From Halogeometricum borinquense DSM 11551 (GTDB taxonomy: Archaea; Halobacteriota; Halobacteria; Halobacteriales; Haloferacaceae), in NCBI RefSeq assembly GCF_000172995.2, contig NC_014729.1:1440001-1472000 (forward strand): DNA of 32,000 nucleotides, written 5' to 3'. Shown in pieces: positions 4,582 to 32,000 of this stretch. Under the pieces are notes generated by a model, which saw only the letters and a program-made list of their open reading frames with translations, ran no database searches and was not told where the DNA came from. Position 1 is the first letter of the stretch. The number at the start of each line of letters is the position of its first letter. The position numbers and the translations under genes were made by a program.

Positions 4582-6006
4582 TTAGCTTCCGTTTCCGCTC
4601 TCGCTTTCGACGCCCATCGCCGCGAATAGTTTTCGGCGGACTGCTTCTTCGGTGAGTTGCAAGAGCGTGTCGCGGTTGTCGTCCGATGTCTCGATACCGG
4701 TGAAGATGCCGAGCGGAATCTCTACGTCGCCTTGCGTGGAGTGGCCGCCCGCTTCGCCGATACCCTCGAAGGCGTCCTGCAGGACGTTCCCGATATTCAT
4801 CCGGATATCCTTCGACCGAGCCGAGAGGTAGATGTTGTCGTCAACGATACCGAAGACGGCGGTCGTCGTCACGCCTTCGAGATTGAGGAGATGTTGGGCT
4901 GCCTGCCCGAGGGCGTCTCTGTCACGGATGAACCCGGCGTTCGAGACGAGATGACTCCCCTGTACGTCGCGGTTCTGGATGGCTTCTGCGAGTACGTCTA
5001 ACGTCTCGGGCGACATCGACGGCGACTCTACCTGTTCGAGCGTGTCGTGATCTGCGAACGGGTAGAGATACGCTGCGGCGGTCAAGTCTGCTGGCGTCGT
5101 CTCGCGTTTGAAGTCAAGCGTCTCCGCGCGGATTCCGTACAGCAGGGCCGTGGCGACGGCCTCGCTGGGGCTGATGTTGAACTCTTGGATGTACTTCGTG
5201 AGGATAGTCGAGGTTGAGGAGACGTTCGGCCGAACGTCGATAAACACCGGATCGATGCCCTCGCCCGGCTCGAAGTGGTCGATGAAAATGTCCACGTCGG
5301 TGCCGATGTCGGGTTCGACCGACTTCATGTGGTCAACCAACGCGACCGACCCGTATTCGCGCAGGTCCGGCGCTTCGGCCAGCGGCGTGAGGTCGATGCC
5401 GAGAAGGTTGACGAACGCGCGGTTCTCCTGATGGCCCATCTCGCCGTCGTAGAGAATGTCTGCCTCGACGTCGTACTCCGCGGCGATGGCCTGTAAGGCG
5501 GCCGCGCTGGCGATGGAGTCGGGGTCGGGGTTGTCGTGCGTTAGAATGGCAAGCTTCCCCTCGGTCGATTCGAGGAGGTCGGCCAGTTGGCGCGCTTTGT
5601 ATTCGAGTTCGCCGGACTCCAGGGAGCGAAGTGCGGAGTCAGCGATAACTTCCGAGGGGTTAATAACGACGTCAGCGCCGAGTTCAGCGAGTTCGTCCTC
5701 TGAAACTGGGTCGGAGGCTCGAACGACGATGAACTGGTCGCTGTTTCGTTCGCGGATGGCGGAGACGGCCGCCTTGTTCGCCTCGACGTCGGATGCGAGG
5801 ATGAGGACTACGTCGCGCTCGGCAACGGCCTCGGAGACTTCGGGGTCCGAGATATCGGTCGTTTGCGCGTTCAAGTCTTGGTCGCGGAGGGCTTCGACTC
5901 GGCTCTCGTCTTTATCGAGGATAAGGACATCTTTCCCTTCCTCGGTGAGTTCCTCGGCCACCGCATGTCCCACGCTCCCACAGCCAAGAATTGCATAGGT
6001 GGACAT
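4582..6006 (-). CDS. TrkA-N (RCK_N, NAD-binding) domain fused to a DHH/DHHA1 phosphoesterase
   Basis: An N-terminal Rossmann GxGxxG (YAILGCGSVGHAV) is followed by DHH motif I (THDNPDPDSIASA), a motif II-like ALVDH, a motif III-like FIDHF and a DHHA1 GGH motif (GEAGGHSTQG). I chose ATG 6006 (MSTYAILG...); the track ORF starts 27 nt further upstream at 6033. Confidence 0.8.
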   Translation of the reverse strand: MSTYAILGCGSVGHAVAEELTEEGKDVLILDKDESRVEALRDQDLNAQTTDISDPEVSEAVAERDVVLILASDVEANKAAVSAIRERNSDQFIVVRASDPVSEDELAELGADVVINPSEVIADSALRSLESGELEYKARQLADLLESTEGKLAILTHDNPDPDSIASAAALQAIAAEYDVEADILYDGEMGHQENRAFVNLLGIDLTPLAEAPDLREYGSVALVDHMKSVEPDIGTDVDIFIDHFEPGEGIDPVFIDVRPNVSSTSTILTKYIQEFNISPSEAVATALLYGIRAETLDFKRETTPADLTAAAYLYPFADHDTLEQVESPSMSPETLDVLAEAIQNRDVQGSHLVSNAGFIRDRDALGQAAQHLLNLEGVTTTAVFGIVDDNIYLSARSKDIRMNIGNVLQDAFEGIGEAGGHSTQGDVEIPLGIFTGIETSDDNRDTLLQLTEEAVRRKLFAAMGVESESGNGS

Positions 6007-6182
6007 CGAGGATATCGTGACCCCAGCACTCATACTATCCTCACGTCTGGTCGGACGACACTTAACAGCACTCGTTTCCGAGAGTCTGCGAGACTAACGT
6101 ATCACGGTGTCACGATCCGGCTCAATCGGGTGCAACTTGCTCCCGTGTGTTGGTTTACCACCTACGGGGTTAAACGAAACAT

Positions 6183-6191
6183 CTTTACTTA
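6183..6191 (+). promoter_or_regulatory. TATA-like box upstream of tRNA-Lys
   Basis: CTTTACTTA is centred about 29 nt upstream of tRNA position 1. The same spacing is seen at tRNA-Leu and at several leaderless CDSs in this window. Confidence 0.4.
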
Positions 6192-6215
6192 CCCCGCAGA
6201 AACGAGAAATCGTAC

Positions 6216-6289
6216 GGGCCGGTAGCTCAGTTAGGGAGAGCGTCTGACTCTTAATCAGACGGTCAAGGGTTCAAATCCCTTCCGGCCCG
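6216..6289 (+). tRNA. tRNA-Lys (anticodon CUU)
   Basis: Hand-folded cloverleaf. The acceptor GGGCCGG pairs with CCGGCCC. D arm: GCTC/GAGC with the GG loop. Anticodon stem: TCTGA/TCAGA with loop CTCTTAA (CUU at positions 34-36). T arm: AAGGG-TTCAAAT-CCCTT. Discriminator G. No encoded CCA and no intron. Confidence 0.93.
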
Positions 6290-6420
6290 CTTCCTACGGA
6301 ATGACCAGGAAATGGTCAAGTGAGCGGTAGCGCTACCGACCACACCACGTTTCCGGTGAAATCTGTTTCAATACGCTCTAATATCCACGAATTCGGCAGA
6401 TCTGGTTGTCGGCTTTACCG

Positions 6421-6777
6421 TCAGACTTCGACGTGTTCGGTGGACTCGCGGTGTTCTGTCTCGGAACCGCGGCGCTGGCGTAGTTCGTCGTCGTGCGCTG
6501 CTGCATTCGCCATCGCTTCGGTGGTCACACCGACGAGTTCCGTCACGCGCCATGCGTTCCCGCGTGCCCCCACTGACTCCATCTGCAACGGGACGGTCGC
6601 ACCTGCCGGAAGTTCTGTCAACGTCTTTTCGACCGTCTCGTCCGCGAATTCGACAAGGTGACGCACCTCACACGACGCTTCGATGCGTACCGTCATCGCT
6701 CCGTGGTCGTTCATCGGCCACTCGATGCGAGCGATGATTGTCTCCGTGTGGGATGGGTTGGTGGTATGATACCACAT
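6421..6777 (-). CDS. Hypothetical protein (118 aa, orphan)
   Basis: Codon third positions are G/C-rich and the composition is acidic. A TATA-like TTTAATA (forward 6801-6807) is centred about 27 nt upstream of the ATG. I recognise no family motif. Confidence 0.55.
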   Translation of the reverse strand: MWYHTTNPSHTETIIARIEWPMNDHGAMTVRIEASCEVRHLVEFADETVEKTLTELPAGATVPLQMESVGARGNAWRVTELVGVTTEAMANAAAHDDELRQRRGSETEHRESTEHVEV

Positions 6778-6912
6778 GCCAGTTTACACTGACTACACTG
6801 TATTAAACTCTCGTTTGCAGAATATGAGTTTATTATCAAAGTATGAGACTCTGCTAGATACGTGAAGAAATCCACCGACTCAATAGACGTTCGTCTAGTT
6901 TTGCCGCCGAGA

Positions 6913-7398
6913 CTAGTCGTCGAGTAATTCGTCCAGTAGGGTCTCTAACTCGTAGTTCTGCAAGACGCGTGCGCTGTCTCGGAGTGACGAGATGACGAAC
7001 GTGGAGTTCGTCCGGTCAACCTCGTCTATCGTCTCGAAGTCGGTGATGAGTCGTTCGACCATCTCCCGCCCCGAAAGGTGAGCGACGACGATGAAATCCG
7101 TTTCACCCATCGTGAAGTACGCCTGTGTGACGCCCTCTACATCGAGAATCTTCTCTTTGAAATCGTGGTGGGAGCCACTGTAGTCAGTGAGTATCTCCAC
7201 GACGACGGTGACGCCGAGTCCGACCTTTTCCAAATCGATGTCGTACAGGTCGTTCTTGATGACGCCCGCCTCGCGCAGATTGTTCAACCGATAGTGAATC
7301 GTTGAGACAGGAATACCGGTCTCTTCGTGCAGTTGTTCCGGGCTTCCCGTTTCGAGGTCAGATATCGCCTTCAGGAGGCGGATGTCGCGTTCGTCCAT
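6913..7398 (-). CDS. Lrp/AsnC family transcriptional regulator
   Basis: The N-terminal HTH (RDIRLLKAISDLETGSPEQLHEETGIPVSTIHYRLNNLREAGVI) is followed by a RAM/AsnC C-terminal domain (VTVVVEILTDY..., TQAYFTMGETDFIVVAHL). Confidence 0.9.
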   Translation of the reverse strand: MDERDIRLLKAISDLETGSPEQLHEETGIPVSTIHYRLNNLREAGVIKNDLYDIDLEKVGLGVTVVVEILTDYSGSHHDFKEKILDVEGVTQAYFTMGETDFIVVAHLSGREMVERLITDFETIDEVDRTNSTFVISSLRDSARVLQNYELETLLDELLDD

Positions 7399-7608
7399 GG
7401 CCGCGGTGTCTGTGAATACACGCCTTAGGGGTTGTATGTTCCGCCTCGTTTCTTAGGGTTCCCTGTCTTGTTTCAGCTTGACAGTGGGGTTACTCTGCAA
7501 ACAATTCGTATATTTCCCGATCTATAATGCGTCAATATGCCTCTATTTTGTATTCTAATCGAAGTTCTAGCGGACTCTTGTAGACAACTTTAACACAGGC
7601 CACCTCTG

Positions 7609-8583
7609 ATGAGGAGTACATCCATGTCGATTCGCACACGCTCTGACACGTCCAACTGGAACGCCCTCCTGTTCATCGCACTCTCGTGCTTCTGGGGGAC
7701 ATCGTTCGTCGCCATCGAGGCAGGCTTGGAATACTTCCCACCTCTGCTGTTCGCGGGGATTCGCTACGGGATTGCCGGACTCGCTATCCTCAGCTACGCT
7801 GTCGCCACGACCGACCGGTGGCACCCAAGCGGGAGAGACGAGTGGCTGAGTGCCGCCGTTGCTGGCGTGTTCATCATCGCCGCCTACCATGCGCTCCTCT
7901 ACATCGGTGAGATGTACGTCTCTGCGTCCGTTGCCGCCGTCGTCGTCAGCCTCGCGCCGGTGCTGACCGCCGTCTTTGCCGCCGGAATTCTCGGCCAGCC
8001 ACTCGATAAGATCGCTGGCGTTGGCTTCCTCCTCGGCATCGTCGGCGTCGTTATCGTCGCCAACCCGGACCCAGCTAACCTCCTCTCGACGAACCTCCTC
8101 GGCATCGTGCTCGTCCTTCTCAGTACGGCAAGTTTCGCCATCGGAGGCGTCCTCACCGAACCGCTTCGGACGTCGCTTCCGGCCGAGTCGATGCAGGCGT
8201 GGGCGATGCTCATCGGTGCCGGTGTCCTCTTCGTCGGTGCCGTCGCGCGCGGTGAGTCCCCTGCCACCATCGAGTGGACATCGACTGCCATCATCTCGCT
8301 CATGTACTTGACGTTCGTCTCCGGTGTCGTCGGCTTCCTCATCTACTTCGCGCTCCACGAACGCGTCGGCGCGACGGAGATCAACCTCGTCAGCTATCTC
8401 GAACCCGTTGTTGCCTCTCTCGCTGGTTGGGTCCTCCTCGGCCACGTCGTGAGTTCGACCACGCTCGTCGGCTTCGTCACTGTCTTCATCGGATTCGCTC
8501 TCGTCAAGCGCCACGCGATTCGCGCTCGCATCCTTGGTGACGTTCCCACCACGGCCACGGGTCACAGCTACGACGCCGACTGA
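7609..8583 (+). CDS. EamA/DMT-superfamily transporter
   Basis: Ten hydrophobic helices in a 5+5 arrangement (LLFIALSCFWGTSFVAIEAGL, LLFAGIRYGIAGLAIL, ... TLVGFVTVFIGFALV). ATG 7624 is an alternative start. The antisense 384-aa ORF is a shadow. Confidence 0.88.
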   Translation: MRSTSMSIRTRSDTSNWNALLFIALSCFWGTSFVAIEAGLEYFPPLLFAGIRYGIAGLAILSYAVATTDRWHPSGRDEWLSAAVAGVFIIAAYHALLYIGEMYVSASVAAVVVSLAPVLTAVFAAGILGQPLDKIAGVGFLLGIVGVVIVANPDPANLLSTNLLGIVLVLLSTASFAIGGVLTEPLRTSLPAESMQAWAMLIGAGVLFVGAVARGESPATIEWTSTAIISLMYLTFVSGVVGFLIYFALHERVGATEINLVSYLEPVVASLAGWVLLGHVVSSTTLVGFVTVFIGFALVKRHAIRARILGDVPTTATGHSYDAD

Positions 8584-27938: not shown

Positions 27939-28445
27939 ATGAACGTCGCGTTGGGCGGGACCTTCGACCCAGTCCACGACGGCCACCTCGCGTTGTTCGC
28001 GAGAGCCTTCGAACTCGGTGACGTGACCGTCGGTCTCACGAGCGACGAACTCGCGCCGAAGACCCGCCACGTCGACCGATACGTCCGCCCGTTCGAGGAA
28101 CGAAAGCGCGACCTCCTCGACGAACTGGAACCGCTTGCTGAGGAACACGACCGCGAATTCGAGATTCGGACGCTGACCGAACCGACCGGTATCGCCACCG
28201 AACCCGGCTTCGACGTACTCATCGTTTCGCCGGAGACGAAGGACGGTGGTGCGCGGATCAACGAGATACGCGAGGAGCGCGGCCTCCCGCCGCTCGACAT
28301 CGAGGTGGTGGATCACGTCCCCGCAGAGGACGGCAAACGCATCTCTTCGACGCGTATCGTCCGCGGCGAAATCGACCGCCACGGGAATCTCACGCCGGAC
28401 CGCGATGGCCGAGAGGCGACGCGTCCGGACGCTGACGGGGCCTGA
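27939..28445 (+). CDS. Phosphopantetheine adenylyltransferase, archaeal type (cytidylyltransferase fold)
   Basis: Nucleotidyltransferase HxGH motif (GGTFDPVHDGHLALF) and a C-terminal ISSTRI motif. The size fits, at 168 aa. Confidence 0.85.
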   Translation: MNVALGGTFDPVHDGHLALFARAFELGDVTVGLTSDELAPKTRHVDRYVRPFEERKRDLLDELEPLAEEHDREFEIRTLTEPTGIATEPGFDVLIVSPETKDGGARINEIREERGLPPLDIEVVDHVPAEDGKRISSTRIVRGEIDRHGNLTPDRDGREATRPDADGA

Positions 28446-28552
28446 TACGGTCGGCTCCCGTCCCGGTGTTCCTCCAACCGAATCAGCAACCGCCGGTAGA
28501 TAGTCGCAACTGTCTGTGTGATACGCTGATCCCCGTCGTCGCGCTTACCCCC

Positions 28553-28861
28553 TCACCACGTCGGGGGGCGGAAGCCGTTCGCTTCCAGAATCTCTTTCCA
28601 CCGCTGTTGGATGCTGAGTCGCGTCACGTCCATCGCGTTGGCGACGCGGGATTGGGACCGCTCTTCGCCTGCGATGAGTGCGCCCGCGTAGAGACTCGCC
28701 GCCGCAACGGCCCGTTTCGACCGGTCGGCGTCCGGCACCTGTGAGAGAAACATATCGCTTGCGTACGACCGCGCTTCGGACCCGAGTTCGAGGCGGTCGG
28801 CCGCCTCCTCGATGCGCGTCAACCACTCTTCGTTGTCGACCCGGTCTCGGGCACTGTACAT
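28553..28861 (-). CDS. Stand-alone TFB-like single cyclin-repeat protein (102 aa)
   Basis: SKRAVAAASLYAGALIAGEERSQSRVANAMDVTRLSIQQRWKEILE aligns by eye with the second cyclin repeat of the TFB in this window ([46 protein letters not shown]). Start at ATG 28861. The rest of the 302-aa track ORF runs antisense through tRNA-Leu. Confidence 0.75.
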   Translation of the reverse strand: MYSARDRVDNEEWLTRIEEAADRLELGSEARSYASDMFLSQVPDADRSKRAVAAASLYAGALIAGEERSQSRVANAMDVTRLSIQQRWKEILEANGFRPPTW

Positions 28862-28948
28862 ACTGGTCTCTCCGCCGCGACCTACTTGACGCTTGCTCAG
28901 TTTCGAGTGTCGGCTCCCGGTGCGCCTCCGGTCGATTGCGAACGACAG

Positions 28949-28957
28949 TTTCTTATC
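28949..28957 (+). promoter_or_regulatory. TATA-like box upstream of tRNA-Leu
   Basis: TTTCTTATC is centred about 29 nt upstream of tRNA position 1. Confidence 0.4.
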
Positions 28958-28981
28958 TCGATTCCTGATACGCTGTAGTGC

Positions 28982-29066
28982 GCGCGGGTAGCCAAGCCTG
29001 GCCAACGGCGCAGCGCTTAGGACGCTGTCTCGTAGGAGTCCGCCGGTTCGAATCCGGTCCCGCGCA
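28982..29066 (+). tRNA. tRNA-Leu (anticodon UAG), class II with a long variable arm
   Basis: Hand-folded cloverleaf. The acceptor GCGCGGG pairs with CCCGCGC. The D arm is GCC(A)/GGC with the GG loop. The anticodon stem is CAGCG/CGCTG with loop CTTAGGA (UAG). The variable arm is 14 nt (CTC-GTAG-GAG hairpin). The T arm is GCCGG-TTCGAAT-CCGGT. Discriminator A. No CCA and no intron. Confidence 0.92.
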
Positions 29067-29101
29067 CTTCTCCGCTCTGAACGAACGTGAAGAGCGGGAA
29101 G
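29067..29101 (+). other. Bulged hairpin immediately 3' of tRNA-Leu
   Basis: CTTC-T-CCGCTC(T) pairs with (A)GAGCGG-GAAG, giving about 11 bp with one bulged T and a 12-nt loop, GAACGAACGTGA. Confidence 0.6.
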
Positions 29102-29169
29102 TGTGCAACGGCCGGTGAGAACCCTGCAAGGAACGCGCAGTGAACTGACGTGAGCGAGCATTTCTTGCT

Positions 29170-29193
29170 CCGGTTCGAATCCGGTCCCGCGCA
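29170..29193 (+). repeat. Exact 24-nt copy of the tRNA-Leu 3' end (att-like relic, copy 2)
   Basis: CCGGTTCGAATCCGGTCCCGCGCA is identical to 29043-29066. There is no 5' half of a tRNA upstream. Confidence 0.9.
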
Positions 29194-29224
29194 TTTTCTG
29201 TCCGAGCGATAGCGAGGACGAAAA
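29194..29224 (+). other. Bulged hairpin immediately 3' of repeat copy 2, homologous to the one after the tRNA
   Basis: TTTTC-T-GTCC pairs with GGAC-GAAAA, giving 9 bp with one bulged T at the equivalent place and a 12-nt loop, GAGCGATAGCGA. Eight of 12 loop positions match the first hairpin's loop. Confidence 0.6.
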
Positions 29225-29273
29225 TCGATACGAGCGGATTCGAAGCAGGGAACGGAGCGAAGCGGAGTGACTG

Positions 29274-29298
29274 CGGTTCGAATCCGGTCCCGCGCACT
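29274..29298 (+). repeat. Copy 3 of the tRNA-Leu 3' end (23 nt plus 2 nt of trailer identical)
   Basis: CGGTTCGAATCCGGTCCCGCGCA-CT matches 29044-29068. The upstream base differs, or one C is deleted. Confidence 0.88.
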
Positions 29299-29510
29299 CA
29301 AATCGCGCCCTTCGGTCACTTTTTCGTCCGGGTTCTTCCCAGCAGCTCACGGTTCTAATGTTCGCATTTTGCTTGGTCGTTCTCCATGGTGTTATCGAGT
29401 AACGGTTTCGTCCGAGACAGCGACCACTATCCAATTCCCAGAAGAGATCATGCGACTCCATTTTTCCATCCCACTTACCTTTTTGGTGGCTGGATAAGTT
29501 GAACCGGCTA

Positions 29511-32000
29511 ATGGCTGATGCCGACGCTCTCCACGATGCTCTACTAAATATCGGTGAGCAGACGAACGACGATATGAGCGAGAGAGACGTAGAAAACCTC
29601 TTTCTGGAACAAGGATTCTATAATGCTCTCGACTACGAAGGAACGGGTACTGACCTCAGAAGCGAGTTCACACTCCCGGACGACCGGCGACCAGATTACA
29701 TCACTCTTGACTCGAACGAGGCCGTCACCGCAGTCTACGAATTCAAGACGACCGGTCGAAGCCTCCCGCCTCACGAATCGCAACTGTTCCACTACATGGA
29801 CTACCTCCGGGCGGAGTACGGCGTCCTGACCAACGGAGAGCAGTTGCGACTCTACCGGCGCGGCGAAGACCGACCGCTCCTCGTCGTCTCCCTCGAATCG
29901 GTTACAGAGGGTGATGCCCGCGACCTCGTTAGTGCCCTCCAGAAGCGCGACTTCGACCTCACGGATCCGGACGACGTGAATCAGTTCCTCGCAGACCTCG
30001 ACCCGATTCCGCTCGACGCGCAGTCGGAACTCGGGCAGGAACACTTCTTCGATACGTTCCGACTGGAGGACGACAGCCCGTTCGCCGACCTCGTCACCGG
30101 GATGATGGACCTCCTGCATGAACTCCGGGACGAGAACGAGGCGAAGTTCGTGAAAGGCGCTTACGACTTCTGGGAGGCGACATACGCCGACGAGCCGGAC
30201 GAGGTGCCGAACTCATGGGACCCGTTCATCAACGGGAAGCAGTCGCTTCGAGACTTCATGTTCTGTCTGGAGAGCGGACACGCGCTTCTCGCACGGCTCC
30301 TACTAGCGAAGGCCACCGAGGACCACGATTTCTTCGCGGGCACTGGATACGATGGGATGGACGACTACTTCCGCGGGTTGCAGGGCTTCGGCGACACCAT
30401 CAACCTCGATGCATTCCCCGTCGCGGCGGACGACCTCATCGACGATATGCAGGAGCAGTTAGTCGAAGGGCTGTTTCAGGACGACATCTTCATCTGGTGG
30501 ACTGACGGATACAGAGAGCAGATTGATACTCAGCACGCGAGCGGGCCGAGCCGGTTCGAGGACGTAGCACGCGGATCCGGTGACGTGGAACGTGTCAGCG
30601 AGACTACTCGGGACCGCTTCAGCCGCGCCGTCGCCGAGGTGTTCTTCAACGTCCTACGGTTCGACTTCCAAGACGTGGAGGGCGATCTCCTCGGGGACCT
30701 CTACCAGCGGTATTTCGACCCGGAGACGCGCAAGGCACTCGGCGAGTTCTACACGCCACAGCCGGTCATCGACTACATCATGGACGGCGTCGGCTACGAG
30801 CGCGGCGTCTCGAACGAGCGACTCATCGACCCGTCGTGTGGGTCCGGGACCTTCCTCGTGGAGGCCGTCGAGCGGTACATCACCGACGTGGAGAACTTCG
30901 AGGACAACCCCGACTGGGAGGAGCATCTACGCGACCTCTGTACCCGCCCGCGCATTGTTGGGCTTGATATACACCCGTTCGCTGTTCTGATGGCACAGAT
31001 TCGCTTCGTGGTCGCTATCCTCCCGGCGTATCGAGAGGCGAAAACGCAGAATCCCGAGTTTACCATTCGGCGGCTCCCAATCTACCGAACCGACACCCTC
31101 CGAAACGAGCGGGAACTGACGGGCGCGGACCTCGGCGACGACGGCACCCGGCAGATGACCTTCGACGCGATGACCGAGGACGACCAAGACGTACGGATTC
31201 CCGTCCCGCTTCCGGTGGAAGTAGACGAGGACGAGGTCGCCGAAACCGAGGACGGCTTCCTCGTGCGCCGGGTTCGGATGCCGCTGTTCGACACGATTCA
31301 GTTGGAGACTGGCGTCAAGAACTTCGGGGAGTATTTCGCGGCCCTACAAGGCGTCTTGGACACCGTCAAGGACCATATGGCGCTGGCCGAGGAATTCGGC
31401 GGCGACTTCGACTGGGAATACAAGAGTGGGCTGGAGGAGCGCATCAACCAGCACACGTCGCGGGACTACTCTGGGGTAGAGGAGTTCTTCACACCCTACG
31501 TGAACGATATGCTGGAGAACGTGCGCTACCTGAAGGAGGAACACAACGACGGACGGCTGTTCAAGATGTTCGAGGACACCGTGCTCGCGCTCGTCGTGAA
31601 GAACTACATGGAGTACGACTACGTCGTGGGGAATCCGCCGTATGTGAATATCAAATATATCTCCGATACCGCGCAAGAACGCTACACCAGACTATACGAT
31701 TCAGCATTTGGGCGTTTTGACCTCTATGTTTTATTTATTGAGCGTGGACTGGAGATGCTAACTGAGGACGGCGAGTTAGGTTACATTACCTCGAATAAGT
31801 TTGCCCGTGCAGAGTATGGGAGAGAAATCAGGCGGTTAATCAGTTCGGAGTATTCCTTGGCGGAGTACATCGACTTTGGCGATACAGAGGTATTCAAGGA
31901 CGCAACTAATTACCCCTGTATTCTGTTTGTTGACCGTGATAGAAATAGAAAAACCGTCCCATATGCAAAAATTAGACGAGAACAAGATAATATCCTCGAT
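29511..32000 (+). CDS. Type IIG-like restriction-modification fusion protein (N-terminal PD-ExK nuclease + gamma-class N6-adenine DNA methyltransferase), 3' end beyond the window
   Basis: This ORF is not in the track because it has no stop inside the window. I translated 830 codons by hand from ATG 29511 and found no stop. The nuclease core is RRPDYITLDSNEAVTAVYEFK (PD...ExK), followed by GVLTNGEQLRLY as in HsdR-N-type nucleases. The FYTP motif is LGEFYTPQPV. SAM motif I is LIDPSCGSGTFLVEAV and motif II is IVGLDIHPFA. Catalytic motif IV is YDYVVGNPPYV (NPPY at 31632-31643). Confidence 0.85.
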   Translation, partial: MADADALHDALLNIGEQTNDDMSERDVENLFLEQGFYNALDYEGTGTDLRSEFTLPDDRRPDYITLDSNEAVTAVYEFKTTGRSLPPHESQLFHYMDYLRAEYGVLTNGEQLRLYRRGEDRPLLVVSLESVTEGDARDLVSALQKRDFDLTDPDDVNQFLADLDPIPLDAQSELGQEHFFDTFRLEDDSPFADLVTGMMDLLHELRDENEAKFVKGAYDFWEATYADEPDEVPNSWDPFINGKQSLRDFMFCLESGHALLARLLLAKATEDHDFFAGTGYDGMDDYFRGLQGFGDTINLDAFPVAADDLIDDMQEQLVEGLFQDDIFIWWTDGYREQIDTQHASGPSRFEDVARGSGDVERVSETTRDRFSRAVAEVFFNVLRFDFQDVEGDLLGDLYQRYFDPETRKALGEFYTPQPVIDYIMDGVGYERGVSNERLIDPSCGSGTFLVEAVERYITDVENFEDNPDWEEHLRDLCTRPRIVGLDIHPFAVLMAQIRFVVAILPAYREAKTQNPEFTIRRLPIYRTDTLRNERELTGADLGDDGTRQMTFDAMTEDDQDVRIPVPLPVEVDEDEVAETEDGFLVRRVRMPLFDTIQLETGVKNFGEYFAALQGVLDTVKDHMALAEEFGGDFDWEYKSGLEERINQHTSRDYSGVEEFFTPYVNDMLENVRYLKEEHNDGRLFKMFEDTVLALVVKNYMEYDYVVGNPPYVNIKYISDTAQERYTRLYDSAFGRFDLYVLFIERGLEMLTEDGELGYITSNKFARAEYGREIRRLISSEYSLAEYIDFGDTEVFKDATNYPCILFVDRDRNRKTVPYAKIRREQDNILD

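Follow-up and report, generated by a model that had tools for sequence, protein, structure and literature searches.

The 32,000-nt stretch of Halogeometricum borinquense DSM 11551 analysed here (the window; NC_014729.1, positions 1,440,001 to 1,472,000, forward strand) contains a tRNA-Leu(UAG) gene whose 3′ end is repeated twice directly downstream. Each repeat closes a non-coding unit made up of a structured spacer and a fresh copy of the tRNA end, termed the core, and, judged by their sequence, the two units are ordinary members of a family that lies behind the same tRNA gene in many haloarchaea. The ordinary part of the locus is a tRNA gene acting as an integration hotspot with a restriction–modification (RM) island; the unexpected part is the conserved, structured, tandem module family with a period of about 113 nt. 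We lean, with somewhat more conviction than doubt, towards reading these modules as non-coding elements, inserted DNA or landing pads, whose turnover proceeds through recombination events at the cores.

The last 22–24 nt of the tRNA-Leu(UAG) gene (29043–29066) constitute core copy 1. The 23-mer CGGTTCGAATCCGGTCCCGCGCA occurs exactly, on the forward strand, at 29044–29066, 29171–29193 and 29274–29296, and no fourth match with up to three mismatches was found in the window (0 expected from 100 dinucleotide shuffles). A repeat search placed the copies in register as a family of 24–27 nt starting at 29043, 29170 and 29273, with spacings of 127 and 103 nt. All 24 nt are common to copies 1 and 2; copy 3 begins with G, not C, and shares the trailer dinucleotide CT with copy 1. 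The original prediction, made from the window alone, had described three copies of the tRNA 3′ end, the second complete and the third lacking its first base and continuing 2 nt into the trailer, and the sequence confirms each of these points; its spacing of 127 nt also holds, whereas its second value, 104 nt, stems from its own start coordinates. Only copy 1 lies inside a tRNA. ARAGORN calls a single tRNA at the locus and neither of the other copies, and an Rfam cmscan of 28000–30000 (E ≤ 1) returned the tRNA match at 28982–29066 together with two chance-level hits elsewhere; copies 2 and 3 are therefore not tRNA genes, as the prediction had also stated. The identity to the 5′ part of the tRNA upstream of these two copies is 0.31–0.32.

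Units 1 and 2 fill the intervals between cores 1 and 2 and between cores 2 and 3. All cores are in direct orientation, and neither interval contains an open reading frame (ORF) or a recombination gene. A 366-nt region of the window folds with a z score of −5.0. The H2 hairpin of unit 1 belongs to a subtype that is also found in Haloarcula, Halorubrum, Natrinema, Natronorubrum and Natronomonas, and the HM segment of this unit resembles the inverted core weakly, the best window (13/23) lying elsewhere in the spacer. The 3′ half of unit 2, ATTCGAAGCAGGGAACGGAGCGAAGCGGAGTGACTG, recurs nearly unchanged in units of Halorubrum, Halonotius and several metagenome-assembled genomes (MAGs), and is found again upstream of a fourth core copy in a contig that is identical to the window and continues past its end (locus L002; AOHT01000014.1 of GCA_000337855.1; window coordinate = L002 + 17938).

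The core was scanned in one genome per species, which gave at least 120 loci, or 123 including three from H. borinquense; the counts for haloarchaea given here refer to the loci listed. Two to four tandem cores (≤4 mismatches) are present in 77 of 120 loci (80 of 123 with the three H. borinquense loci), as one to three units per locus with a median period of 113 nt, mostly 90–140 nt. In an independent count, 64 of 102 tRNA-Leu(UAG) genes repeat their own 3′ 19-mer within 400 nt; the corresponding control on other tRNAs is weak, with eight non-UAG tRNAs in the compared DNA. Units occur in Halorubrum, Haloarcula, Natrinema, Natrialba, Natronorubrum, Natronococcus, Halorientalis, Halobaculum, Halolamina, Halovenus and Halonotius and in many MAGs, and about one third of the species have none. 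Copy number (0–4), order and subtype differ among congeners and between strains.

Spacers from five different families are homologous and align module by module, following a common plan of core, hairpin H1, linker, HM, hairpin H2 and next core, with a unit length of approximately 100–127 nt. H1 starts 1–4 nt past the preceding core and has a pyrimidine- and T-rich 5′ arm; the linker of one subfamily includes TGCGCG(GG), which is complementary to the 3′ strand of the acceptor; HM, of the type GGATTCGAACCCTG, resembles an inverted T-loop; and H2 abuts the following core. The invariant block of the core spans about 22 nt (GGTTCGAATCCGGTCCCGCGCA), and the bases preceding it vary (CGG, TGG, AGG or TTG). 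Truncated units are common. All units have the orientation of the tRNA and lie directly downstream of it, and no copy was found outside tRNA-Leu trailers in the 0.93 Mb of haloarchaeal DNA searched. The duplicated segment, 22–24 nt of the tRNA end itself, is unlike the target-site duplication of a miniature inverted-repeat transposable element (MITE).

The structure of the spacers is conserved beyond their sequence. The H1 motif consists of a 6-bp stem, a G.A/A.G step, 2 bp, a loop of 3–9 nt, 2 bp, a second G.A/A.G step and the returning strand of the stem. Of 101 distinct units, 69 contain it, compared with 0.56 expected from shuffled spacers, and it is built with 30 different outer stems. 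In a register-safe alignment all eight pairs have changed on both sides, with a covariation score of 0.90 against 0.26 for shuffled data, a score reached by none of 500 shuffles. The percentage of paired H1 positions is circular as a measure, the hairpins having been picked for pairing; the occurrence statistic is not. For one subtype drawn from five families, RNAalifold predicts a single long imperfect hairpin that joins HM, paired to the 5′ part of the core after it, with H2, and the H2 hairpins of this subtype show an A-U to G-C swap at one stem position (6 versus 5 sequences) together with a conserved G.U pair. In 43 of the 101 units, at least 14 of 23 positions of HM agree with the inverted core, compared with 5% of shuffles; the similarity lies mostly in the T-loop part, and in Halorubrum sp. 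CBA1125 (L008) HM is a perfect inverted core.

These features are strand-specific. The G.A/A.G steps occur on the tRNA-sense strand only, and in 83 of 101 units (p = 4e-11) the better fold of the two spacer strands is that of the sense strand. The outer stems of H1 are uninformative in this respect (six G.T against seven A.C); the strand bias is seen in the G.A steps, the folding energies and the G.U pair of H2. Compensatory changes combined with sense-strand folding indicate that pairing matters in a single strand of tRNA polarity, and we infer that the hairpins act in a single-stranded state, as RNA or as DNA. This GA-step hairpin (stem, GA, 2 bp, loop, 2 bp, GA, stem, with loops such as GAGCGGAGCGA) also forms clusters in intergenic regions that are not immediately beside a tRNA gene (L116, minus strand, 7760–7900; L115, 5880–6060; L027, 3538–3560; L048, 813–836), which suggests that the hairpin is a more general haloarchaeal repeat.

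Such conservation raises the alternative that the main role of the units is to encode a structured tRNA-like RNA, co-transcribed with tRNA-Leu. A unit is able to fold into a cloverleaf-like shape in which HM takes the place of the anticodon arm and H2 that of the long variable arm; the RNA would consist of H1 and this cloverleaf-like body, with the T arm and acceptor 3′ strand as in tRNA-Leu. Enzymes of tRNA maturation would process it, and its role in the cell might be that of a decoy, a processing signal or a mask that keeps the partial copy from mispairing with the tRNA. The constant position and orientation of the units fit this view, as do the compensatory stems, the conserved G.U, the sense-only G.A/A.G steps and the better folding of the sense strand, the complementarity of TGCGCG(GG) to the acceptor 3′ strand in one subfamily, and the fold of the 366-nt region. 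It is also favoured by one unit (L113:2763–2858) that ARAGORN calls a 96-nt ‘tRNA-Asn(att)’; units can consequently be mis-annotated as tRNA genes or fragments. We nevertheless regard an RNA gene as an unlikely main role. The Rfam search of 28000–30000 (E ≤ 1) gave no match of a curated covariance model to the units; a copy number of 0–4, a variable order and subtype, and the third of species without units are not what a conserved RNA gene would show; many units do not keep the T-stem's 5′ strand, given the variable bases before the invariant block; truncated units are common; and the acceptor-complementary segment is confined to one subfamily. A comparable tRNA-like processing element is the t-element of Haloferax volcanii, which lies upstream of 5S rRNA and is cut by tRNase Z. 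It shares with the units a partial tRNA-like fold next to a stable RNA gene, here predicted from sequence, whereas the units are tandem, vary in copy number and match the 3′ end of the neighbouring tRNA exactly. A new family of tRNA-like trailer RNAs could also hold alongside the mobile-cassette reading discussed below.

Alignments of related loci show that units are gained and lost as exact whole units. The H. borinquense loci compared were the sister strain L001 (GCA_004150395.1), L002 and the Logan assembly L003, and the sister strain is missing precisely unit 1, one spacer and one core that together make a 127-nt block. In Haloarcula amylolytica a full 109-nt unit (86-nt spacer and 23-nt core) sits exactly after a different gene, tRNA-Leu(GAG) (L087:6687–6880). 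The corresponding site is empty in four other Haloarcula species (L009, L061, L069 and L106), which have the same trailer and flanks that are 97–100% identical. Over 39 nt, the right half of the inserted unit has the same sequence as units that Har. vallismortis and Har. terrestris carry at their UAG locus. At its 3′ end tRNA-Leu(GAG) differs by one base, and both cores flanking the unit are of the GAG-type variant, CCCACGCA. Core variants are common to the tRNA and its units in L062 and L087 and, in L106, to a long copy of the attachment (att) site and the neighbouring units, which argues for exchange among copies. In this last locus, from Haloarcula sp. NS06 (L106:3891–4232), the long att copy is followed by three units, the first two of which are identical over 104 nt; the long copy and both identical units carry the core variant GGTTCGAATCTGG, pointing to a recent tandem duplication. 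The Logan contig of H. borinquense (SRR9434877, 8588 nt) ends within unit 2, which suggests that short-read assemblies are broken at the locus by the repeated cores.

A further alternative is that the units arose as by-products of DNA synthesis. Fold-back (hairpin-primed) synthesis, or template switching at very stable GCGAAGC-type mini-hairpins near a site that is often nicked, would then have made the zig-zag arrangement (direct core, H1, inverted core, H2, direct core), the arrays would grow and shrink by unequal crossing-over, and the stems would be complementary by templating and not by selection. The likeness of HM to an inverted core, perfect in L008, and the frequency of GCGAAGC in the loops are in keeping with this, as are the shared core variant of the identical units in L106, the target-type cores on both sides of the L087 unit, which a duplication would produce, and the similar hairpins in other intergenic regions. 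We think such an origin improbable: compensatory double changes within one subtype argue for selection after the origin of the stems, the inverted-core likeness is mostly that of the T-loop part, near-identical half-units occur in different families, and the constant orientation of the GA-rich strand is left unexplained.

The landing-pad reading draws on the integrase elements that use the same tRNA. The fourth core copy, the strain-variable island and the integrases found after this tRNA in relatives bear out the earlier view that the locus is an att-type integration hotspot. The 418-kb plasmid NZ_CP084091.1 of Halomicrobium urmianum (L128) carries an att–integrase module (5994–7111) in which a 57-nt fragment of tRNA-Leu(UAG) that is no tRNA gene precedes a PF00589 integrase gene by 43 nt; the module is followed by a gene for a serine-type ‘recombinase family protein’ and a DUF5906 primase-like gene, and BLAST gave a second match to the tRNA-like segment elsewhere in the plasmid. 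Homologues of this integrase (41–50% identity) are encoded 75–100 nt downstream of the tRNA-Leu(UAG) core, on the same strand, in Halolamina salifodinae, Haloarcula japonica, Har. argentinensis, Halobiforma haloterrestris, Natronomonas aquatica, Halorussus salinisoli, Halopelagius fulvigenes and the MAG L108; the loci with the integrase inside the element next to att are L032, L053, L069, L093, L033, L108, L063, L034 and L128. Taken together, such integrases directly follow this tRNA in at least nine other species, besides the plasmid. In the MAG L024 the homologue lies upstream of a long-form att copy, and in Haloarcula sp. NS06 a truncated integrase (residues 7–169) follows the core, with the long att copy approximately 2.4 kb further on.

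The identity block of these elements, which spans the anticodon loop to A73, measures about 54 nt, and that of the units 22 nt. Units are located beyond the long-form attR in Halolamina salifodinae (L032), Haloarcula sp. NS06 (L106), the MAG L024, Natronomonas aquatica (an element of about 22 kb, L033/L122) and Halobiforma haloterrestris (L093/L043), and therefore predate those integrations. In Natronococcus (L031), in the MAG L042 and in the window and L001, cargo stands after the unit or units and before the long-form att copy; in Har. argentinensis (L069) cargo follows a unit core, and the distal junction is unit-like, with no long-form copy. The position of cargo after unit cores indicates that these cores have been used as alternative attB sites. 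The proposal that the spacers are fused attP arms of integrase elements was rejected, as the arms look different and the units lie outside the elements.

The original prediction had attributed the stacked copies to repeated integration and deletion at this site, so that copies 2 and 3 would be attL or attR relics of successive large elements, nearly wholly deleted here. The tRNA 3′-end direct repeats at a proven hotspot and the difference in copy number between strains agree with it; even so, we judge it quite improbable and already largely refuted. Random deletions would not leave spacers of 80–105 nt with the same order of modules and hairpins in 77 of 120 loci, the spacers are unlike the arms of integrase elements, the identity block of those elements is 54 nt and that of the units 22 nt, the units were in place before the integrations, and behind a different tRNA one entire unit stands as a single 109-nt insertion. 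The explanation has given way to that of a conserved structured family, carried by about two-thirds of the haloarchaeal species examined, whose units lie outside the attR of intact elements and come and go whole; in the island of the window strain no integrase or remnant of one was found. The converse possibility raised by the prediction, a conserved tRNA trailer, holds in that the family is widespread and fails in that the arrangement is neither identical nor static among relatives. That the units are simply a conserved trailer of the host, inherited vertically, unconnected with mobile DNA and serving for instance in termination or processing, would accord with their spread in the class and with an H1 that begins 1–4 nt after the discriminator with a pyrimidine- and T-rich 5′ arm, yet it is highly improbable and largely refuted, a terminator having no need of a copy of the last 22 nt of the tRNA, copy number varying between strains and congeners, the tRNA-Leu(GAG) insertion having four empty congeners and cargo lying at unit cores.

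The island to the right of copy 3 illustrates how the cores may be used. The type IIG RM gene, whose presence downstream had been noted before, encodes a protein with Eco57I, N6_Mtase and TaqI_C domains and an HSDR_N-like N terminus, and is followed by a 394-amino-acid HSDR_N_2 gene on the minus strand and then by the conserved dacZ–mscS pair. On the left, the tRNA is preceded by housekeeping genes (Nop56/58, fibrillarin, GCS2, a cytidylyltransferase and a small TFIIB-repeat protein). A further core copy beyond position 32000, which the prediction had suggested searching for, is present in degenerate form as CGGTTCGAATCCGGTCTCGCATA, with three mismatches, at L002:16770–16792 (window-equivalent 34708–34730), outside the window, 5.4 kb downstream and 170 nt upstream of dacZ. 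It marks the right end of the island, so that direct repeats of the tRNA 3′ segment (copy 3 and the fourth copy) stand at both ends. In L001 the fourth copy extends 5′ to GCTTAGGACGCTGTCTCGTAGGAGTCC and covers about 52 nt, from the anticodon loop through the variable arm; by this extent it is a classic displaced tRNA 3′ part.

The flanks of the island are 99.6–99.7% identical between L001 and L002, and its first 2.4 kb are 98.95% identical. From window position 31646 the RM genes of the two strains cannot be aligned in their middle part; towards the C terminus they are 70% identical, and the cargo beyond them is unrelated, one strain having an HSDR_N_2 gene and the other a DUF3892 gene. The stretch from copy 3 to the fourth copy thus varies between the two strains, a point that the prediction had proposed to check. 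The drop in GC content seen earlier (0.464 at 31501–32000) lies within the RM gene at the start of this strain-variable segment, which runs to window-equivalent 32849 (L002:13708–14911) and looks like a swapped target-recognition region. At the right junction, L002:16681–16792 (window-equivalent 34619–34730) equals the long att copy of L001 (16012–16064) with a 57-nt insertion. The insertion is flanked by duplicated GGTTCGAAT (T-loop), which fits breakpoints at the T-loop, and its content is the HM–H2 part of a unit resembling unit 2. At the left junction, the 48-nt trailer of copy 3 aligns with the spacer of the Halobiforma haloterrestris element (L093) with a score of 25 against a maximum of 23 in 200 shuffles (z = 5.2), and more weakly with that of L128 on the plasmid (z = 2.8). 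An empty site, in which the tRNA trailer would be joined directly to dacZ, was not recovered from any strain among the genomes compared. With its P′-like junction, its att copies and the loss of the integrase, the RM island is best read as an integrase-less remnant of a tRNA-Leu integrase element, docked at copy 3.

Coordinates of the tRNA, units and neighbouring features in the window
Feature	Position	Strand	Basis or composition
tRNA-Leu(UAG) gene	28982..29066	+	ARAGORN (28982–29067); Rfam RF00005, 49.1 bits, E 5e-9; exact core match
Unit 1 (127 nt)	29067..29193	+	Spacer of 103–104 nt and core copy 2 (29170–29193)
Unit 1, hairpin H1	29067..29101	+	CTTCTCCGCTCT-GAACGAACGTGA-AGAGCGGGAAG: outer stem, G.A/A.G step, 2-bp inner stem, GAAC loop
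Unit 1, HM	29110..29127	+	GGCCGGTGAGAACCCTGC, degenerate, inverted-T-loop-like; in the consensus fold, paired with core copy 2 (5′ part)
Unit 1, hairpin H2	29126..29168	+	GCAAGGAA...TTTCTTGC stem abutting core copy 2
Unit 2 (103 nt)	29194..29296	+	80-nt spacer and core copy 3 (29274–29296; in register 29273–29296)
Unit 2, hairpin H1	29194..29224	+	TTTTCTGTCC-GAGCGATAGCGA-GGACGAAAA
Unit 2, HM	29232..29246	+	GAGCGGATTCGAAGC, inverted-T-loop-like, complementary to core TTCGAATCCGGTC (inverted-repeat pairs)
Unit 2, H2 region	29245..29274	+	GCAG...CTGC stem around GGAACGGAGCGAAGCGGAGTGA
Island left junction, copy 3 trailer	29297..29344	+	Resembles the att-to-integrase spacer (P′ arm) of integrase elements
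Type IIG RM gene (1250 aa; 830 codons in window)	29511..32000, to window-equivalent 33263	+	Island cargo
TFIIB-repeat protein gene (102 aa), conserved left flank	28553..28861	-	Flank 99.6% identical between strains

Taken as landing pads, the modules would make the locus a tRNA-Leu(UAG) gene followed by two miniature att-core modules and then by an integrase-less RM island at the third core. Each module consists of a structured spacer of about 80–105 nt and a fresh copy of the last 22–24 nt of the tRNA, and this copy, from the T-loop to the discriminator, is the identity and crossover segment of the att sites of a family of haloarchaeal tyrosine integrases. As a module carries an att core, it adds an attB-like landing site behind the tRNA. 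The island has lost its integrase, and part of its cargo has been exchanged between strains. Recombination at the cores, by an integrase acting in trans or driven by homology, would account for changes in copy number and for spread between genomes, even to tRNA-Leu(GAG), and modules may be carried along when elements excise through non-adjacent cores.

Several observations weigh against this scheme. The P′ arm and the long tRNA-like P side of the integrase elements are unlike the units, and no recombinase is tied to unit insertion. Target-type cores on both sides of the L087 unit are not predicted by a single conservative crossover with a UAG-type donor. Mobile DNA yielded no free unit: IMG/VR contains no exact 23-mer core, and BLAST of 29020–29300 against phage and plasmid records gave matches to the tRNA-like part alone, the one annotated feature at the phage matches being a tRNA-Asp gene of Bacillus phage G. 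An 18-mer of the core has four matches in IMG/VR, all on large viral contigs, three with viral tRNA genes nearby and none with an att site. An att site that works purely as double-stranded DNA has no need of the compensatory changes in the hairpins, which suit an RNA role just as well, and a circle of about 110 bp is an awkward substrate for double-stranded recombination. Homologous integrases do adjoin copies at the same tRNA in other haloarchaea, but not in the island of the window strain: for both H. borinquense islands tblastn gave no match to an integrase or its remnant, and the best profile-HMM E value in a six-frame search was 1.2. Current mobility at the window locus is consequently not supported.

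The units share features with several known systems. Like the islands and proviruses of tyrosine integrases at tRNA-gene att sites (Islander database, PMC4383910; review of archaeal integrases, PMC8371274), the locus has a direct repeat of the tRNA 3′ end at both ends with the tRNA regenerated, an identity block that runs from a tRNA loop to the 3′ end, strain-variable accessory RM cargo and, in relatives, a PF00589 integrase next to attL. It differs in that the island of the window has no integrase, in the presence of two att forms, one of 54 nt (anticodon loop) and one of 22 nt (T-loop), and in that what the short copies terminate is not an island but a structured non-coding unit of about 100 nt, of a kind conserved class-wide. 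Williams is said to have defined, in 2002, sublocation classes of tRNA-gene attachment sites.

Cis-mobilizable elements (CIMEs), described in Streptococcus, are att-flanked, kilobase-sized deletion derivatives of a recognisable parent. As in CIMEs and accretion arrays, att copies in the same orientation are stacked behind one target, segments lack an integrase and elements integrate at any copy; by analogy, segments might be mobilised in trans, and precise unit insertions and deletions are seen. The units, in contrast, measure about 100 nt, have a conserved structure and occur in most species of the class, with no recognisable parent: their spacers are unlike P or P′ arms, and no similar sequence was found in the plasmid, phage and IMG/VR collections. 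Tandem accretion is documented for phages as well as integrative conjugative elements (PMC13651849), and tandem integration for archaea (PMC8371274).

The ~100-nt non-coding hairpin units of repetitive extragenic palindromic (REP) sequences and REPINs provide another likeness, as do the GA-step hairpins elsewhere in haloarchaeal intergenic regions. REPINs are genome-wide and linked to RAYT transposases, whereas the units are tied to tRNA-Leu 3′ ends and always terminated by a core; because they are not dispersed, they are neither MITEs nor REPINs. Integron attC arrays resemble them in architecture, with sites of 60–140 nt, structure kept over sequence, strand-specific features and, possibly, an imperfect palindrome of an inverse-core/core pair (HM and core) around a variable hairpin tip (H2). 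In the consensus fold HM pairs with the 5′ part of the core around H2, and the likeness to the inverted core is significant but partial. In integron arrays cargo is inserted between sites by a tyrosine recombinase. Most units, unlike integron cassettes, have no ORF, and the 3′ end of a tRNA serves as their core; the locus lacks attI, a Pc promoter and an IntI-type integrase, and the 20-kb locus contains no integrase at all, only housekeeping genes and the RM island.

A bolder version of the landing-pad reading, which we put forward tentatively and hold to be possible but doubtful, is that the units are undescribed archaeal miniature site-specific elements: structured, ORF-less cassettes that insert at tRNA-Leu 3′ ends, regenerate the tRNA end and stack. 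Recombining by way of a single strand folded as inverse core, hairpin and core, they would be functional analogues of integron attC sites and would serve as landing pads for the exchange of defence islands. Recombination of a folded single strand would apply here by analogy with the integron. Literature searches by topic and by core sequence returned no prior description of the units, although their coverage was incomplete and an earlier description is possible.

The window also contains a tRNA-Lys(CUU) gene (6216–6290) whose 3′ end is not repeated within the window and which has no trailer units. A stretch of low GC content (0.54; 6001–7500) follows it, including a gene on the minus strand (6913–7398) that resembles a putative small transcription regulator.

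That tRNA genes are integration hotspots is textbook knowledge; a class-wide structured module of about 100 nt that stacks in tandem and multiplies the att core behind one particular tRNA was not found described in the literature searched. Under either reading, as mobile modules or as RNAs, the units cause tRNA-fragment miscalls and break assemblies. If they are RNAs, they would constitute a new tRNA-linked RNA family. If they are mobile or act as landing pads, the core together with the hairpins would be a simple marker for small integrase-less defence islands, and the modules would explain how such islands are exchanged at this locus, as exemplified by the type IIG RM system with its swapped specificity region and cargo.

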